Virus record (IMG/VR): IMGVR_UViG_2541047907_000003
Direction: 5' to 3' (one strand)
From: a virus
Taxonomy: Duplodnaviria > Heunggongvirae > Uroviricota > Caudoviricetes
Length of the DNA: 47,013 nt
In this document: positions 24,798 to 45,374 of the stretch, one piece after another
Position numbering within the stretch: the first letter of the stretch is position 1
How the letters are laid out: every line of letters begins with the position of its first letter
Program-made: the position numbers and the translations under genes
The notes under the pieces: generated by a model
Told to the model about the DNA's origin: nothing
The model's input: only the letters and a program-made list of their open reading frames with translations
The model's database searches: none

Positions 24798-25068
24798 GAT
24801 GTTACCGTAGTATGTGAGTATCCATCGAATAGACACCAAGCAAAAAAGCTCCCGAAGGAGCCTTCATTTTCACTTTTTTAAATCCAACGACAGACGGCTG
24901 GCATTTAAGTATTGTGAAATATTATCAAATGTAATCATCATTGATTTACAAAAGATACATTTTGCCCCGAAAGGATTCATGTCAGAAACATCAAAAGATG
25001 ATGTTCTATACTGGGAACCATGACAACACGGGCATCTAAAGTGAATATGGTTTGTAATATTGTCTACC

Positions 25069-25281
25069 TCAAAGCGCCACTACATGAACAGCGGCAGGAC
25101 CTTTAGGTCCGTTCTCAATACCAAATTCAACTTCCTGATTCTCAGTTAATGTTTTGAAATCGTTGCTCTGAATTGCTGAGAAATGGACAAACACATCTTT
25201 GCTGCCATCTTTCGGCGTGATGAAACCAAAACCTTTTTCAGGGTTAAACCATTTCACTAAACCAGTCATTTTGTTAGACAT
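25069..25281 (-). CDS. cspI: cold-shock domain protein (CspA family)
   Basis: 70-aa [56 protein letters not shown] with RNP1 motif KGFGFI and RNP2 VFVHF. Confidence 0.7.
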
Positions 25282-25643
25282 AATTATTACCTTTTGAAGA
25301 AATTAGCCCTTGGGCAGAATGGTCCGAAAAAAAATATCAGAGAGAAAAACCAACAAGGAAATCTCAAGAGGTACAAATAATAAAATTATAACAATGACTG
25401 CTTCAGATAAATTTGTAACAAACCAGAACACCATTAACGCATGATTAACCACCCATAGCAAGGATTACTTTTGTAAAGAAAAACACAGCAATGAAAGAAT
25501 AGCTTTATTTATTAATAAAACGTGTCATTCTGATTAAGACCTTTTATCTTACCCTTAAGATTTCAGGAATTTTGGCTCATGGAAGAGTCCTTTTTATTTA
25601 AATTTTACATTCCGCGATGTAAATGTTCCGATTTAATATTACC

Positions 25644-27668: not shown

Positions 27669-27950
27669 TGAGATTGTGGTGCTTTTTGTGGGAGTCATCC
27701 ACTTACGCACTTTGTTTTGCGATGCCAGCAGTTAGCTTCTGCTGTGAAACTATTCATGCAGCAAACCTGCACTTCACCACAATGGTTAGCATACTTTTCC
27801 TGATTAAGATTTTGCCAAATATGCTGGCCATTGTTTCATGTATTGGACCTCCTTACTTTTTATTAAAGAGATCCAATATTCACTACTCTGTCCGTATCTC
27901 TACTCAGGCATCAGCCTTCTTCGTTATCGTATACAGACGAGCGATGAATT

Positions 27951-28166
27951 TTAATCAGTAATGATGACATTTGCTGCTGCAGGACCTTTAGCACCACTCT
28001 CTATAGAGAAGGTAACCTTTTGACCTTCAAATAAGGTTCGATAATTATCATTCTGAATCGCAGAAAAATGCACAAACACATCTTTACTACCATCAACAGG
28101 AGAAATAAAGCCGAAACCTTTATCAGCGTTAAACCATTTTACTAAACCAGTCATTTTATTTGACAT
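27951..28166 (-). CDS. cspB: cold-shock domain protein (CspA family)
   Basis: 71-aa [56 protein letters not shown]. Confidence 0.7.
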
Positions 28167-28466
28167 TCTACATTCCTTAACTTGAGCCTTTCGGCATAAA
28201 TGGTTTGCATAACAGAAACGACTTCGTACTTAATTGGAGAGACTCAAAGAAGGAATAAGTGAATAACACCTGAAATGAGAACTGCTTTAGTAAACTACTT
28301 CGTATATCGTCTGTTCTTCAAACCGACGCAATCATTAACGCATAGTTGAACATATGAAGCAATGTTTATTTTAGACATCCAGCCATCTTCAACCCCATCA
28401 AAAAACTATAGCTTTCTTCAGGAACGTGTGTATAGTGCGCCAAGTTATCAGTATTAAGGAATTTTT

Positions 28467-28679
28467 TTGTCCCGTAAAATGACAGGAATTGTCAAAACCT
28501 TTGACGGCAAAAGCGGCAAGGGTCTTATCACCCCATCCGATGGTCGTATCGATGTCCAGCTTCATGTTTCAGCGCTCAATCTCCGCGATGCAGAAGAAAT
28601 TACCACCGGATTACGCGTGGAATTTTGCCGGATAAATGGTCTGCGTGGCCCTTCAGCTGCCAATGTTTACCTTTCATGA
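28467..28679 (+). CDS. cspF: divergent cold-shock domain paralog
   Basis: 70-aa [73 protein letters not shown]; degenerate RNP motifs. Confidence 0.6.
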
Positions 28680-28733
28680 GCTATATTAAAGCTTTAATTT
28701 CAGGCCCCATCGGATCACACATGGAGAGTTTTT

Positions 28734-28823
28734 ATGAATAACCCCGTCTGTCTTGATGACTGGTTGATTGGCTTTAAAAGCTTATGCTGTACTTTGGCCG
28801 TAATAGCTCTGCTAATAATATAA
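28734..28823 (+). CDS. candidate 29-aa hydrophobic small protein
   Basis: hand-found [32 protein letters not shown] with GGAGAG about 7 nt upstream; lies between cspF and a plus-strand terminator. Confidence 0.35.
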
Positions 28824-28975
28824 TAAGCAGACTCATTGTGTTTAGGGACATTGTACTGGAAGAAAACATTTTAAACATCAGGCAAATAACCAAGTCACCA
28901 GCTAAATAATAAGTTAACAGACATGAGTCCCGGGATGAGATTCATCATTACCATTGCCCCATTTAAAGCACAAAA

Positions 28976-29005
28976 CCCGCTCATCAGCGGGTTTTCTACT
29001 TTTTC
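28976..29005 (+). terminator. rho-independent terminator
   Basis: stem AAACCCGCT-CATC-AGCGGGTTT followed by TCTACTTTTTCTT on the plus strand. Confidence 0.6.
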
Positions 29006-29100
29006 TTAACGTCGGGTATACAAAGCCCATCGTTGAAAAAAATTTATCCATATTTTTTGAAAAATGCAAACATCATGTCGCCATCTTCAGCAAAAATCAT

Positions 29101-29853
29101 TTATCTCGTCACCTTCCTCAATTGCGCTTCCGCGTATGCTTCTTCCTGCCAGCACTTTGTTACCAGTTTACCAATGACGTCCGCATACCCCTTATACCAC
29201 TGATAATCGGTCAGGTCTGGTACCAGCTTCTGGACATGACGTCGTGCCAGCGTGGTCGGTAAACGACTAAACCGGTTTCCATTACAACGCCCACAAATCT
29301 TATATACCGGTACGCCATGAAACCGGGTTCTTTTTTCATCCAGAACAATCCCTTTACCCTTACACCCTCTGCACGCTGTGCTGGCTTCGCCCTTACCATG
29401 GCAATGCTGACATAGTTCCTTCACCCATTCTTCCTTGATTACAGATTCCCCGCGTCTGTAGTGTTTCACCACTTCGCGCAATACATTATAAAATCCCGTA
29501 CCTGAACAATGCTCACAGCGAGCCTTACTTGCCGCAGACCTGGAGTAATCAGCAAAGGCAAAACTCACGAGGTAAGGAATAATCTGTAACCGGATTTCTT
29601 CACTCAATTTGTTCAATGTCGGGTTATCCAGTGCCATCGCGTAATTTAGCAGGCCTTCAATCGCAAACTGAGGGTCCTGAACACCAACTTTTGCCAGAAA
29701 TAAGGCCAACCCAAGTGGTGCTTTCGACTGCACCATCCCCTGCGCTGCCATTACATCCGTAATTGTTAAACAACCGGTGCCTGTCGCTGGAGCGTCATCG
29801 CTCAATTTTGGAGATTTTGGGGAGTAATATTTTGGTAAGGCTTCAAGGTTCAT
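29101..29853 (-). CDS. late-gene antiterminator Q (Qin QuuQ-like)
   Basis: track ORF 29101..29883; start at MNLEALPKYYSPKSPKLSDDAPATGTGCL; Cys/His zinc-binding cluster CEHCSGTG...CQHCHGKG...CRGCKGKG. Confidence 0.75.
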   Translation of the reverse strand: MNLEALPKYYSPKSPKLSDDAPATGTGCLTITDVMAAQGMVQSKAPLGLALFLAKVGVQDPQFAIEGLLNYAMALDNPTLNKLSEEIRLQIIPYLVSFAFADYSRSAASKARCEHCSGTGFYNVLREVVKHYRRGESVIKEEWVKELCQHCHGKGEASTACRGCKGKGIVLDEKRTRFHGVPVYKICGRCNGNRFSRLPTTLARRHVQKLVPDLTDYQWYKGYADVIGKLVTKCWQEEAYAEAQLRKVTR

Positions 29854-31730: not shown

Positions 31731-31886
31731 TTACTCCTCAGGTTCGTAAGCTGTGAAGACAGCGACCTCCGTCTGGCCGGTTCGGATTCGTACCTCGCAG
31801 AGGTCTTTCCTCGTTACCAGTGCCGTCACTATGACGGTTAAACAGATGACGATCAGGGCGATTAACATCGCCTTTTGCTGCTTCAT
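31731..31886 (-). CDS. hokD: Hok-family type I toxin (small membrane peptide)
   Basis: hand-found 51-aa ORF MKQQKAMLIALIVICLTVIVTALVTRKDLCEVRIRTGQTEVAVFTAYEPEE, below the track threshold; a Hok sequence. Confidence 0.85.
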   Translation of the reverse strand: MKQQKAMLIALIVICLTVIVTALVTRKDLCEVRIRTGQTEVAVFTAYEPEE

Positions 31887-31957: not shown

Positions 31958-32245
31958 TCAGAGAATGCGTTTGACCGCCTCGCTATATACTTCCGAGCGT
32001 TCTCTTTTCCCAACAGAAATCACGAAAACGACAACTTTCTCGTCTATAACCTGGTATACAAGGCGATAGCCTGAAGACCGGAGCTTAATCTTGTAACAAT
32101 CAGGCATACCACGGAGCTTGTTTGCTTCAATCCGGGGTGACTCAAGTACTTCAACCAGCTTCTTTTTCAACTGTTCACGTACCGTCGAGCCCAGCTTTCG
32201 CCATTCCTTTAGTGCCCGCTCGTCAAAATCCAGAAAATACGCCAT
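31958..32245 (-). CDS. relE: RelE mRNA interferase toxin
   Basis: 95-aa ORF MAYFLDFDERALKEWRKLGSTVREQLKKKLVEVLESPRIEANKLRGMPDCYKIKLRSSGYRLVYQV. Confidence 0.9.
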   Translation of the reverse strand: MAYFLDFDERALKEWRKLGSTVREQLKKKLVEVLESPRIEANKLRGMPDCYKIKLRSSGYRLVYQVIDEKVVVFVISVGKRERSEVYSEAVKRIL

Positions 32246-32484
32246 CAGAGTTCATCCAGCGTCACACGTACTGGCTTAGGATTACGAAGCCGTTCTTTCA
32301 CTATCTCCACAAGTTCAGCATCTTCATCACTCAGGAGTGTCTGTTTGAACGGCAAGCGTTCATTGTCAGCGATATACTCGAGCATGAGACGAAGCGCTTC
32401 AGAAGGAGTTACACCCATTTTTTCAAGCGCGGCGTAAGAACGCGCTTTAAGTTCATCGTCAATACGCAGGTTAATGCTACCCAT
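32245..32484 (-). CDS. relB: RelB antitoxin
   Basis: 79-aa ORF MGSINLRIDDELKARSYAALEKMGVTPSEALRLMLEYIADNERLPFKQTLL; stop overlaps relE start. Confidence 0.9.
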   Translation of the reverse strand: MGSINLRIDDELKARSYAALEKMGVTPSEALRLMLEYIADNERLPFKQTLLSDEDAELVEIVKERLRNPKPVRVTLDEL

Positions 32485-32496
32485 GTCTTACACCTC

Positions 32497-32522
32497 TTGT
32501 AATTACAAATGTCATTACAAGT
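32497..32522. promoter_or_regulatory. relBE promoter/operator with TTGTAAT repeats
   Basis: TTGTAATTACAAATGTCATTACAAG just upstream of relB; palindromic TTGTAAT/ATTACAA units read directly. Confidence 0.6.
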
Positions 32523-32814
32523 ATCGCACTACAACATGCTTAGGGCAAGTCACGAAGGAAGTCAGAAAGTAGTCGTAAGAACGGTGATCACTGTCCGCTT
32601 TCTGCCAGGAGCAGCCATTGCTAAGTCCATCCTGTATTGTGCAGGTCAGCTCGTTTTTAAAGAGTCCGGCCATCATCTTACTGGTACAGACACCATATAC
32701 TTTGTGACGGTCAGGCTACATATGCACAACTCAACTTATTCATCTATTTTTTGCTTTAGCATGTCAGTGTTGCTTTCTCGTCGGCGGGTGAGCGGTGACC
32801 TGACCTGTCGATAA
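32509..32814 (+). CDS. hypothetical protein
   Basis: 101-aa ORF divergent from relB; no recognisable domain; could be non-coding. Confidence 0.25.
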   Translation: MSLQVSHYNMLRASHEGSQKVVVRTVITVRFLPGAAIAKSILYCAGQLVFKESGHHLTGTDTIYFVTVRLHMHNSTYSSIFCFSMSVLLSRRRVSGDLTCR

Positions 32815-33016
32815 AGGAACGTAACACGTTTTATGCAACACCCGCATGCGGCAGAAAATTATTGCCGAACGTTTACCCCTGTCAACAAGCTTTACTTTCT
32901 GAGGCGCGCCAGCCCGCGAGGAAAACAATCTGAACATCAAACAATTAATGACACAAGAAATACGATTAAAGATTTTTTTGTGCATGCCGATAGTGCTTTT
33001 TTAAAAGGAGAAATCT

Positions 33017-33349
33017 ATGTCTGTCACAATTCAGGGAAATACCTCAACCGTTATTTCAAACAACTCCGCCCCGGAAGGAACATCAGAAATAGCCAAAATC
33101 ACAAGACAAATTCAGGTGCTGACTGAAAAGCTTGGGAAAATCTCATCGGAAGAGGGGATGACGACACAGCAGAAAAAAGAAATGGCTGCATTGGTACAGA
33201 AGCAAATTGAAAGCCTCTGGGCTCAACTGGAGCAGTTGTTAAGGCAGCAGGCAGAGAAAAAGAATGAAGACGCGACAGTTCAGCCTGATAAAAAAGAAGA
33301 GAAAAAAGACGATACAAATACCGCTGGCACCATTGATATTTACGTCTAA
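33017..33349 (+). CDS. flxA: FlxA-like protein
   Basis: 110-aa ORF MSVTIQGNTSTVISNNSAPEGTSEIAKITRQIQVLTEKLGKISSEEGMTTQQKKEMAALVQKQIESLWAQLEQ. Confidence 0.75.
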   Translation: MSVTIQGNTSTVISNNSAPEGTSEIAKITRQIQVLTEKLGKISSEEGMTTQQKKEMAALVQKQIESLWAQLEQLLRQQAEKKNEDATVQPDKKEEKKDDTNTAGTIDIYV

Positions 33350-33429
33350 GTGACAGCCGTATTGTGGCCCTCATCGGGCCACTTTTCGCCATCAGCCTTT
33401 TCTTTAAAGACATATTATCTTTGTATCAT

Positions 33430-42206: not shown

Positions 42207-42263
42207 TTCTGGTGACGTTTGGCGGTATCAGTTTTACTCCGTGACTGCTCTGCCGCCGTTTTT
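42207..42263 (+). ncRNA. dicF: DicF small regulatory RNA
   Basis: TTTCTGGTGACGTTTGGCGGTATCAGTTTTACTCCGTGACTGCTCTGCCGCC followed by GTTTTT; matches the DicF sequence as I recall it, immediately upstream of dicB. Confidence 0.8.
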
Positions 42264-42432
42264 AAAGTGAATTTTGTGATGCGGTGAATGCGGCTAAGCG
42301 CACGCGGAACAGTTAAAACCAAAAACAGTGTTATGGGTGGATTCTCTGTATCCGGCGTTAATTGTTAACTGGTTAACGTCACCTGGAGGCACCAGGCACT
42401 GCATCACAAAATTCATTGTTGAGGACGCGATA

Positions 42433-42621
42433 ATGAAAACGTTATTACCAAACGTTAATACGTCTGAAGGTTGTTTTGAAATTGGTGTCACTATCAGTAA
42501 CCCTGTATTTACTGAAGATGCCATTAACAAGAGAAAACAAGAACGGGAGCTATTAAATAAAATATGCATTGTTTCAATGCTGGCTCGTTTACGTCTGATG
42601 CCAAAAGGATGTACACAATGA
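42433..42621 (+). CDS. dicB: cell division inhibitor DicB
   Basis: track ORF 42328..42621; start at MKTLLPNVNTSEGCFEIGVTISNPVFTEDAINKRKQERELLNKICIVSMLARLRLMPKGCTQ (62 aa). Confidence 0.85.
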   Translation: MKTLLPNVNTSEGCFEIGVTISNPVFTEDAINKRKQERELLNKICIVSMLARLRLMPKGCTQ

Positions 42622-42809
42622 ATTCAGCATTTGCGCTTGTTCTGACAGTTTTTCTTGTTTCCGGAGAGCCAGTTGATATTGCAGACAGTGTTCACAGGAC
42701 AATGCAGGAGTGTATGACTGCAGCAACCGAACAGAAAATTCCCGGTAACTGTTACCCGGTCGATAAAGTTATTCACCAGGATAATATCGAAATCCCGGCA
42801 GGTCTTTAA
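42618..42809 (+). CDS. ydfD: YdfD-like small membrane protein
   Basis: track ORF 42564..42809; start at MNSAFALVLTVFLVSGEPVDIADSVHRTMQECMTAATEQKIPGNCYPVDKVIHQDNIEIPAGL (63 aa); ATGA overlap with dicB stop. Confidence 0.7.
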   Translation: MNSAFALVLTVFLVSGEPVDIADSVHRTMQECMTAATEQKIPGNCYPVDKVIHQDNIEIPAGL

Positions 42810-42902
42810 AACAGTTCCGTAATAAATATCCGGTTTCATTCTTATATGCCAGCAATGGCAGGGATTTGTTCATCCTTAAATCTGTCATGAGGTTAAAACA
42901 AA

Positions 42903-45374
42903 ATGAGTAAAGTCTTTATTTGCGCCGCTATTCCTGACGAACTGGCAACAAGGGAAGAAGGCGCTGTGGCTGTAGCCACAGCCATTGAAGCTGGCGACGA
43001 ACGCCGTGCTCGAGCAAAATTTCACTGGCAGTTCCTGGAACATTATCCGGCTGCTCAGGACTGCGCTTATAAATTTATTGTCTGCGAGGATAAACCTGGC
43101 ATACCCCGCCCTGCCCTCGATTCATGGGATGCTGAATATATGCAGGAAAACCGCTGGGATGAGGAGTCTGCTTCTTTTGTCCCGGTTGAGACTGAATCCG
43201 ATCCGATGAACGTCACTTTTGACAAGCTGGCCCCTGAAGTACAGAACGCTGTCATGGTTAAGTTCGACACATGTGAAAACATCACCGTTGATATGGTTAT
43301 TAGCGCACAGGAATTGTTGCAGGAAGACATGGCAACATTCGACGGACATATCGTTGAAGCGTTGATGAAAATGCCAGAAGTTAACGCCATGTATCCGGAG
43401 CTTAAGTTGCACGCCATTGGGTGGGTTAAGCATAAATGTATTCCTGGTGCTAAATGGCCCGAAATTCAGGCAGAGATGCGCATCTGGAAAAAACGTCGCG
43501 AAGGTGAACGCAAGGAAACCGGAAAATACACGTCTGTTGTTGATCTCGCCCGCGCCAGAGCCAATCAACAGTACACTGAAAATTCAACAGGAAAAATCAG
43601 CCCGGTCATTGCTGCCATTCATCGCGAATACAAGCAGACATGGAAAACACTGGATGACGAACTGGCCTACGCTCTCTGGCCTGGTGATGTGGATGCCGGA
43701 AACATTGACGGCAGCATCCATCGCTGGGCAAAAAAAGAAGTTATCGACAACGACCGCGAAGACTGGAAGCGTATCTCGGCATCAATGCGCAAACAGCCTG
43801 ATGCCCTTCGCTACGACCGCCAAACTATTTTTGGCCTTGTCCGTGAGCGTCCGATCGACATTCACAAAGATCCCGTAGCACTGAACAAATATATCTGCGA
43901 ATACCTGACGACAAAGGGCGTGTTTGAGAATGAAGAAACAGGCCTGGGCACTGTTGATGTTCTCCAGTCATCAGAAACACAAACTGATGCAGTGGAAACT
44001 GAGGTATCTGATATCCCAAAAAATGAAACCGCGCCGGAAGCTGAACCATCTGTAGAGCGTGAGGGGCCGTTCTATTTCCTCTTCGCAGATAAGGACGGAG
44101 AAAAATACGGTCGCGCAAACAAACTTTCTGGTCTGGATAAGGCACTGGCTGCTGGCGCCACTGAAATCACAAAAGAAGAATATTTTGCCCGAAAAAATGG
44201 CACATACACGGGCTTACCGCAAAATGTAGATACCGCTGAAGATTCAGAACAACCAGAGCCGATAAAAGTTACCGCTGACGAAGTAAACAAAATTATGCAG
44301 GCAGCCAATATCAGCCAGCCTGACGCCGATAAGTTGCTTGCTGCATCACATGGTGAATTTGTTGAAGGGATTAGTGACCCGAATGATCCGAAATGGGTTA
44401 AGGGGATCCAGACCCGCGATTCTGTGAACCAGAACCAGCATGAATCGGAACGGAACTACCAAAAAGCGGAACAAAACAGCCCAAATGCGTTACAAAACGA
44501 GCCAGAAACGAAACAGCCTGAACCAGTGGCGCAACAGGAAGTGGAAAAAGTCTGCACCGCCTGCGGTCAGACCGGCGGCGGCAACTGCCCTGATTGTGGC
44601 GCGGTGATGGGCGACGCAACATACCAAGAAACATTCGATGAAGAGTATCAGGTTGAAGTTCAGGAAGATGATCCGGAGGAAATGGAAGGCGCTGAACATC
44701 CACACAAGGAGAACACTGGCGGCAATCAGCATCACAATAGCGATAATGAAACTGGCGAGACGGCAGATCACTCAATTAAGGTGAACGGTCATCACGAAAT
44801 CACATCCACCAGCAGGACGTGTGACCATCTAATGATCGACCTTGAAACCATGGGAAAAAATCCTGATGCACCGATCATCTCAATAGGTGCAATATTTTTC
44901 GATCCGCAAACCGGAGATATAGGACCGGAATTTAGTAAGACTATCGATCTGGAAACTGCTGGCGGAGTCATTGATCGGGACACCATTAAATGGTGGCTTA
45001 AGCAATCACGCGAAGCACAATCTGCCATTATGACCGATGAAATCCCGTTAGATGATGCACTGTTACAATTGCGGGAATTTATCGACGAAAACTCCGGTGA
45101 ATTTTTTGTTCAGGTTTGGGGAAATGGAGCCAACTTCGACAACACGATTTTGCGCCGTTCATACGAACGGCAGGGGATCCCCTGCCCGTGGCGTTACTAC
45201 AACGATCGCGATGTACGCACAATCGTTGAGCTGGGGAAAGCCATAGATTTCGATGCCAGAACGGCTATTCCATTCGAAGGTGAGCGCCATAATGCACTTG
45301 ATGACGCCCGTTACCAAGCAAAATACGTTTCAGTTATCTGGCAAAAACTGATCCCGAGTCAGGCTGATTCTTAA
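42903..45374 (+). CDS. large exonuclease with C-terminal DnaQ-like DEDDh 3'-5' exonuclease domain
   Basis: 823-aa ORF; acidic N-terminal two thirds, Cys4 cluster CTACGQTGGGNCPDCG, C-terminal MIDLETMG...WGNGANFD...HNALDDARY motifs. Confidence 0.75.
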   Translation: MSKVFICAAIPDELATREEGAVAVATAIEAGDERRARAKFHWQFLEHYPAAQDCAYKFIVCEDKPGIPRPALDSWDAEYMQENRWDEESASFVPVETESDPMNVTFDKLAPEVQNAVMVKFDTCENITVDMVISAQELLQEDMATFDGHIVEALMKMPEVNAMYPELKLHAIGWVKHKCIPGAKWPEIQAEMRIWKKRREGERKETGKYTSVVDLARARANQQYTENSTGKISPVIAAIHREYKQTWKTLDDELAYALWPGDVDAGNIDGSIHRWAKKEVIDNDREDWKRISASMRKQPDALRYDRQTIFGLVRERPIDIHKDPVALNKYICEYLTTKGVFENEETGLGTVDVLQSSETQTDAVETEVSDIPKNETAPEAEPSVEREGPFYFLFADKDGEKYGRANKLSGLDKALAAGATEITKEEYFARKNGTYTGLPQNVDTAEDSEQPEPIKVTADEVNKIMQAANISQPDADKLLAASHGEFVEGISDPNDPKWVKGIQTRDSVNQNQHESERNYQKAEQNSPNALQNEPETKQPEPVAQQEVEKVCTACGQTGGGNCPDCGAVMGDATYQETFDEEYQVEVQEDDPEEMEGAEHPHKENTGGNQHHNSDNETGETADHSIKVNGHHEITSTSRTCDHLMIDLETMGKNPDAPIISIGAIFFDPQTGDIGPEFSKTIDLETAGGVIDRDTIKWWLKQSREAQSAIMTDEIPLDDALLQLREFIDENSGEFFVQVWGNGANFDNTILRRSYERQGIPCPWRYYNDRDVRTIVELGKAIDFDARTAIPFEGERHNALDDARYQAKYVSVIWQKLIPSQADS

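Follow-up and report, generated by a model that had tools for sequence, protein, structure and literature searches.

Is the 29-codon hydrophobic open reading frame (ORF) that begins at position 28734 of this viral DNA a genuine gene, and if it is, does it encode a toxin or a regulator, as small membrane peptides of prophages often do? The question was raised by a preliminary description of the window (i.e., the whole stretch of 47,013 nts analyzed here), in which the ORF was presented as unannotated, preceded by a ribosome-binding site, and followed by a strong terminator of its own. The overall explanation that we regard as probable is that we are dealing with ynfS, a small gene already known from the Qin-type lambdoid prophages of E. 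coli and translated into 29 residues, which would share a transcript with cspF, face a bidirectional tR' terminator, and encode a predicted tail-anchored peptide under weak or no selection.

Identification of the reading frame as ynfS

The ORF (28734..28823, plus strand) consists of 29 codons plus a stop, with an ATG start at 28734-28736 and TAA at 28821-28823. A Shine-Dalgarno sequence, GGAGAG, is located at 28723-28728 and is separated from the ATG by TTTTT, which gives a distance of 5 nts (7 nts for the GGAG core). Start codon, GGAGAG, and frame all lie where the preliminary description had placed them. The encoded peptide is 100% identical to the product of ynfS in E. coli MG1655 (b4750, YP_009518791.1, 1642122-1642211), and the DNA around the gene differs between MG1655 and the window by only 2 SNPs in 451 nts. 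The Pfam family PF23697, "YnfS", matches the peptide over residues 1-29 of 29 (80.9 bits compared with a cut-off of 27, E-value 4.7e-23); searches of NCBIfam, PHROGs, and PADLOC returned no meaningful family for it. In UniProt, the ynfS product has the entry YNFS_ECOLI, and in RefSeq the gene appears as a CDS in other strains, with its product named hypothetical protein. When positions 28400-29100 were compared with complete E. coli genomes, more than 1,400 of them matched at >99% identity, and these matches fall within the Qin prophage, between cspF and ydfT, where a 90-nt CDS is annotated at the position of ynfS.

The ORF of the window is ynfS, a member of the YnfS family and in fact its type sequence itself. 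It is a genuine gene, not a new one, having already been named and catalogued. The label "unannotated" has to be withdrawn in view of b4750 in MG1655, the RefSeq CDS in other strains, YNFS_ECOLI, and PF23697; the accompanying remark that a 60-aa ORF cut-off would overlook such a gene is right. No second copy of ynfS was found in a search of the 47-kb window. A 39-codon ORF antisense to ynfS (28774..28893, minus strand) was also considered as a true gene and rejected: it starts with TTG, its start context is changed in the diverged haplotypes, and no support for it was obtained.

Chance expectation and evidence for translation

A short ORF by itself means little, because 62 ORFs of at least 20 amino acids overlap the 3 kb around ynfS. 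The combination that we counted consists of an ATG-initiated ORF of 20-60 amino acids, a Shine-Dalgarno core 5-10 nts upstream, and a 19-residue window with a Hessa sum below 0. Throughout the whole 47-kb window, this combination occurs twice, in ynfS and in hokD (31886..31731, minus strand), compared with a mean of 0.03 in 30 block shuffles, and its presence in ynfS is beyond chance. The criteria used in the preliminary description, namely a Shine-Dalgarno sequence and a hydrophobic short ORF, select only YnfS and HokD here, which is a fair validation of that reading. In this way ynfS was found from the raw sequence alone; originally, epitope tagging and ribosome profiling were needed to establish the gene.

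With regard to translation, VanOrsdel et al. (2018) fused the SPA tag to 80 short ORFs at their chromosomal loci and could detect the products of 36, among them YnfS, whose entry reads 'cspF / ydfT, 1642122-1642211, 29 aa'; it had also been positive in an earlier tetracycline ribosome-profiling screen (PMC6001520). Weaver et al. (2019) reported strong start peaks for YnfS with both retapamulin and Onc112, and the protein was detectable by immunoblotting in stationary phase in LB at a level comparable to that of most newly found small proteins (bioRxiv 10.1101/511675). The ynfS of the window, including its Shine-Dalgarno sequence, is identical to the K-12 gene whose synthesis was shown in these studies. 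The proposal that a small prophage ORF is translated here is thereby borne out by SPA tagging and ribosome profiling in the literature (PMC6001520; 10.1101/511675). As the first step of the proposed mechanism, the ORF, identical to b4750, is translated from its own Shine-Dalgarno sequence, as both the present analysis and the literature show.

In a 2024 survey, ynfS was still counted among the uncharacterised genes of Qin (PMC11551758). Our literature search found neither a functional study of ynfS nor a report of a toxicity test; a NaF transcriptome paper includes the gene merely in a cluster table, and the literature on cspF and the Qin prophage that we searched contained nothing on ynfS regulation.

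Predicted membrane segment

The best 19-residue window of YnfS (residues 11-29) has a Hessa sum of -1.0 kcal/mol, which is marginal, and a mean Kyte-Doolittle value of 2.46, with Lys15 lying inside it. After Lys15, only about 14 uninterrupted hydrophobic residues follow. The peptide has an acidic N-terminus of nine residues, no flanking positive charges, and nothing C-terminal of the hydrophobic segment. The hydrophobic character noted at the outset is thus confirmed as a C-terminal segment, although a marginal one by its Hessa sum. Residues 10-29 most likely form a tail-anchored inner-membrane helix, as judged by these predictions, and as the fourth step of the mechanism this part of YnfS would be located in the inner membrane.

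Linkage of ynfS to cspF

The genes around ynfS are arranged in the order cspB (minus strand), cspF (plus), ynfS (plus), hairpin, ydfT/quuQ (minus), and ydfU; past cspB come the lysis genes, likewise on the minus strand. cspB occupies 27951..28166 (minus strand), and cspF occupies 28467..28679 (plus strand). The latter encodes the cold-shock-like protein CspF of 70 amino acids (NCBIfam NF012007, 160 bits) and carries the same annotation in MG1655 and other strains. Between cspF and ynfS is a spacer of 54 nts (28680..28733, plus strand) that contains the GGAGAG, and the stop codon of cspF is located exactly 54 nts upstream of the ynfS ATG in all 122 loci with enough flanking sequence (122/122). 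On the other side, the distance from ynfS to the terminator varies from 142 to 149 nts across loci. A scan of the spacer detected no terminator- or promoter-like site on the plus strand, and the consensus scan did not identify a promoter for cspF.

From the invariant spacer of 54 nts, the shared orientation of the two genes, and the lack of a terminator in between, we infer that cspF and ynfS form a bicistronic transcript; most simply, ynfS would be the second cistron of the cspF mRNA. In the second step of the mechanism, ynfS would be the distal cistron of this transcript, within a cspB/cspF accessory ('moron') insertion that would sit between the late terminator of the phage and its lysis genes. 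In the chromosomal paralogue cspH, homology to cspF ends at the stop codon, and no ynfS-like ORF was found downstream of it.

Several observations concern the csp genes themselves. The prophage cspF/cspB pair (27951..28679) and cspI-ynfQ are mirrored in MG1655 (1050963..1051872), where cspH and cspG are divergent and ymcF follows cspG, which suggests that the csp modules of chromosome and prophage are paralogous to each other; among the csp units compared, only the prophage cspF carries ynfS. The cspA thermoregulator (RF01766) was matched at 27935..28327 (minus strand) on the cspB leader and at 25042..25427 (minus strand) on the leader of a second csp gene, presumably cspI, and no RF01766 match was found for cspF. 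cspF is not known as a classical cold-shock-induced gene, which its lack of an RF01766 match fits.

The downstream hairpin and a proposed Q-controlled late unit

The hairpin that was described as the terminator of the ORF is present at 28972..28995, 148 nts past the ynfS stop codon. It comprises 10 base pairs (5 G-C) and a 4-nt loop, followed by CTACTTTTTC, and its fold has a free energy of -14.7 kcal/mol on the plus strand (z -6.6) and of -21.2 kcal/mol on the minus strand (z -7.7). It is flanked by T-rich tails, at 28996..29007 (plus strand) and at 28975..28965 (minus strand). A strong hairpin terminator does exist here, as the preliminary description stated. From the terminator scan, the folds, and its co-conservation with Q, the feature is assigned as a putative bidirectional intrinsic terminator (28962..29007, both strands), proposed to be tR' on the minus strand.

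Its assignment to ynfS is not upheld, since its conservation follows Q in phages that do not carry ynfS and since PR' is on the minus strand. In the search of phage genomes, only the segment from the hairpin to the Q stop codon (28972-29100) was widespread. SfV, Ayreon, mEp460, many Stx2c phages, and others have the Q gene and the hairpin without cspF or ynfS; the annotations of SfV and Ayreon list this hairpin as a terminator on the strand of Q. Even between haplotypes with flanks of just 84-92% identity, the hairpin is 100% conserved. The adjacent gene, ydfT/quuQ (29101..29853, minus strand), encodes an antitermination protein of the lambda-Q type with 250 amino acids (PF03589 Antiterm, E-value 3.6e-54; PHROG 127; annotated as ydfT), which is 33% identical to lambda Q (E-value 2e-40). 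Compared with lambda Q, the Qin-type protein contains 48 inserted residues, which carry extra CxxC motifs and match the central zinc finger of DnaJ (PF00684, E-value 1.3e-08).

A putative lambda-type late promoter, PR', is located at 29026..29069 on the minus strand and is colinear with lambda PR'. It consists of a -35 element TTGCAT (29069..29064), a 17-nt spacer, a -10 element TAAATT (29046..29041), TTTTTC, and CAACGATGGG (29035..29026). The corresponding arrangement in lambda is TTGACT-17-TAAATT-TGACTC-AACGATGGG; the two align without gaps, and the -10 element and the 10-mer of lambda are identical to those of the window. This 10-mer includes AACGAT, a sigma70 pause element; in lambda, AACGAT is a -10-like element that causes a sigma70-dependent promoter-proximal pause and is the site of Q loading. 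The -35 element agrees with the consensus at 3 of 6 positions, and for this reason PR' was missed by the consensus promoter scan. SfV, Ayreon, 2H10, and Tritos have kept the element, and five phages have both the promoter and the pause element. A 51-codon ORF on the minus strand (28914..29069), annotated in phage PhiR42_1, begins upstream of the inferred PR' start and was set aside for that reason.

The hairpin lies about 40-63 nts into the PR' transcript, and the terminated RNA is predicted to be about 70 nts long. This close spacing of promoter and hairpin is conserved in SfV, Ayreon, Stx2c phages, and mEp460. Because it is conserved with Q in the absence of ynfS and sits about 40 nts into the transcript of a lambda-type PR', the hairpin is best read as primarily tR', the terminator of the Q-controlled late operon. 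Its conserved role would be that of tR' for a short PR' transcript, overridden by Q, as suggested by the identity with lambda PR' and the co-conservation with Q. Since the structure is symmetric and a T-rich tail follows it in either direction, the cspF-ynfS transcript that converges on it can stop there as well, and the third step of the mechanism would be that this transcript ends at the plus face of the bidirectional hairpin. For ynfS, a better description is that its transcript meets the late terminator of the phage from the opposite side.

With Q active, the late transcript from PR' would cross ynfS and cspF in antisense orientation on its way to cspB and the lysis genes. The layout of the locus alone suggests a regulatory reading, in which the cspF-ynfS and the Q-dependent late transcripts would be a convergent, mutually antisense pair meeting at one bidirectional terminator. 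Upon prophage induction, Q-driven read-through might then silence ynfS and cspF, or host-driven transcription of cspF-ynfS might dampen leaky late transcription of the lysis genes; in both cases, YnfS would be a membrane peptide whose level might report or modulate lysogeny. We consider this reading highly improbable.

Distribution, conservation, and natural loss

Copies of ynfS were gathered with a degenerate DNA pattern for the fixed 10-residue core of YnfS and from BLAST hits (n = 129). When one genome each of 185,579 species was scanned with the pattern, only two E. coli records and Shigella flexneri contained it, and tblastn against 50,697 phage records recovered only PhiR42_1, HannyBb, PhiR63_1, and 2H10. 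Near-identical copies were also found in a few Salmonella and Klebsiella records. The gene is nearly confined to Qin-like prophages of E. coli and Shigella and to a few temperate phages.

The 129 copies represent eight DNA haplotypes, all of 29 codons. Seven nonsynonymous differences were observed (N2D, N3K, P4S, S16I, A22T, V23L, and I29M), along with one synonymous difference and one loss of the start codon (ATG>ATA). Conservation of the frame in homologous regions had been named in advance as a check on the ORF, and the 29 codons are intact in 129/129 copies, with the start codon lost in one. The resulting pN/pS is approximately 1.9 (18.7 synonymous and 68.3 nonsynonymous sites), which is indistinguishable from neutral and is based on only 8 events; the count is biased, as copies with an amino-acid change in any of ten codons could not be collected by the pattern, and the actual proportion of nonsynonymous changes should, if anything, be larger. 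The substitutions are spread evenly over codon positions. In the protein collection, common variants occur inside the fixed core as well, namely I12T on 661 contigs, L11M on 559, and D9N on 180. The comparative data show no sign of purifying selection on the YnfS peptide.

Identity between diverged haplotypes differs among the segments of the locus, decreasing from 98-100% in cspF to 96-98% in ynfS, 91-94% in the spacer, and 84-87% in the 3' stretch. This last segment, 148 untranslated nts that separate the ynfS stop codon from the hairpin (28824..28971, plus strand), is the most variable of the locus. That ynfS is better kept than its noncoding flanks could reflect some constraint; the gradient could also mark the border within a mosaic, where a conserved csp module adjoins a Q module that has diverged.

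Natural losses of the gene were also detected. A 258-nt deletion (window positions 28670..28927), which takes away ynfS along with the final codons of cspF, is present in E. coli JNEC-KY208 and in the isolated phage Tritos, and cspF is also frameshifted in this lineage. Among 1,720 matching E. coli records, approximately 170 appear to carry the deletion, a figure estimated from the 80-90% identity band and evenly spaced rows. In another lineage (NZ_CP092449/NZ_CP092452), an IS1 element is located inside ynfS. The linkage of the locus, the deletion, the IS1 insertion, and the cspH data characterize ynfS as a constant attachment of the cspF carried by the phage, and one that is dispensable for phage growth. 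The narrow range, the neutral-looking substitutions, the natural deletions, and the expression during ordinary growth together suggest the fifth step of the mechanism, in which YnfS would be an accessory product under weak or no selection and not a gated toxin.

Competing explanations for YnfS

A possible, though clearly less probable, alternative is that ynfS is a translated ORF without any function, in which a fortuitous Shine-Dalgarno sequence and ATG in the 3' region of cspF would give rise to translational noise or to a young proto-gene. The pN/pS of about 1.9 with changes even over codon positions agrees with this, and so do the many single-residue variants, which include polar ones in the hydrophobic part (such as I12T on 661 contigs). 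A family nearly limited to E. coli and Shigella, with a variant named in Salmonella records, no distant homologues, and nothing equivalent after cspH, points in the same direction, as does the 258-nt deletion in an estimated 170 or so of 1,720 E. coli records and in the viable phage Tritos. However, the length of the frame is intact in all 129 copies, ynfS is more conserved than the noncoding flanks, and a Shine-Dalgarno sequence combined with a hydrophobic segment is rare (2 observed vs 0.03 expected). This alternative overlaps the weak or absent selection of our preferred explanation, from which it differs in degree, not in kind.

A membrane-damaging toxin of the type I-like or holin-like kind, checked by an antisense RNA, which could be the Q-dependent late transcript across ynfS, appears improbable. 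TisB, ZorO, ShoB, and Ibs are small toxins with a hydrophobic segment and a size similar to that of YnfS, and the 29 residues and hydrophobic tail of YnfS resemble them; moreover, the prophage also carries hokD and relBE, and the late transcript from PR' would be fully antisense to ynfS. Against this, the Pfam search at E-values up to 1 gave PF23697 alone, with no Hok or other toxin family, and PADLOC gave no match. No antisense or antitoxin RNA of Rfam was detected at 28400-29100, whereas sok and DicF were recovered by this search from other parts of the window. On the minus strand, promoter-like sites are no commoner than in shuffled sequences, and the Shine-Dalgarno sequence is free of significantly stable structure (fold of 28655-28830, z -1.75). 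The peptide lacks flanking positive charges, it accumulates from its chromosomal locus in ordinary LB cultures, unlike the tightly repressed type I toxins, and its gene is naturally deleted in a viable phage. The toxin or regulator role put forward in the preliminary description is accordingly disfavored by the absence of a toxin or defence family and of an antisense RNA family, by synthesis in ordinary growth, and by the deletion. A very improbable reading is that the RNA matters and not the peptide, through stability of the cspF 3' UTR, a 3'-derived small RNA, or an antisense target, with translation being incidental or protective. Conservation at the nucleotide level without an excess of synonymous changes and the convergent arrangement with PR' are in line with such an element; however, Rfam gave no match at the locus, the stability of 28655-28830 when folded does not significantly exceed that of shuffled sequences, and the adjacent 3' stretch, which would belong to the same UTR, is the least conserved segment. 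The consequence of the result is small, and the sequence of YnfS gives no strong lead to a function.

Other elements of the prophage

Outside the locus, a sok antitoxin RNA of Rfam was identified at 35205..35371 (minus strand; 111 bits compared with a gathering score of 59), between an ISEsa1-type transposase (33786..35126, minus strand) and a P-loop ATPase (35475..36962, minus strand). No hok-sized ORF of at least 40 amino acids is listed at 35205..35371, and this sok may be an orphan or part of an IS-truncated hok/sok locus, separate from hokD (31731..31886).

The early region of the prophage (32000..44000) differs from that of the K-12 Qin prophage, and its best matches are three pig strains, one of them named ETEC (99.9% identity, 89% coverage). 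The matching strains carry an ISEsa1 element, an IS3-family element (with an ALIL frameshift pseudoknot at 38905..39021), and a P-loop ATPase of the Sll1717 family; in a related strain, a Kiwa KwaB-like gene is found at the position of the early region. This region may be a variable spot for defence or cargo genes.

Comparison with known systems

The closest known counterpart is YnfS of the K-12 Qin cryptic prophage, which shares all 29 residues, the place between cspF and ydfT/quuQ, the spacer, and the terminator. The prophage of the window differs in its early region and comes from a non-K-12 strain; the gene itself is the same. YnfQ and YnfR (after cspI of the same prophage) and YmcF (after cspG) are likewise encoded by small translated ORFs that trail a csp gene on the same strand. 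YnfQ and YnfR were found by the same tagging study as YnfS, and YnfR is induced by cold shock (PMC6001520).

The type I toxins (Hok/HokD, TisB, ShoB, Ibs, Ldr, and ZorO) have 19-52 residues and one hydrophobic helix and are often borne by prophages, and a member of this class, hokD, lies 2.9 kb from ynfS. In contrast to them, YnfS has no match to their families, no detected antisense RNA, and no long folded leader, and it is translated in normal growth. Its likeness to these toxins is superficial.

With the PR'-6S RNA-tR' unit of lambda, the region downstream of ynfS shares a promoter directly after a lambda-Q homologue, the -10 element TAAATT, a 6-nt gap, the CAACGATGGG pause element, and, downstream, a predicted intrinsic terminator. 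The two units differ in that the terminated RNA is predicted to be about 70 nts here compared with 194 nts in lambda, the -35 element of the window (TTGCAT) is weaker, and its Q carries the 48-residue insertion; in addition, the hairpin of the window also faces a convergent, host-expressed transcript. By this comparison of sequence and arrangement, the hairpin and the promoter upstream of it appear to be a compact version of lambda PR'-tR'.
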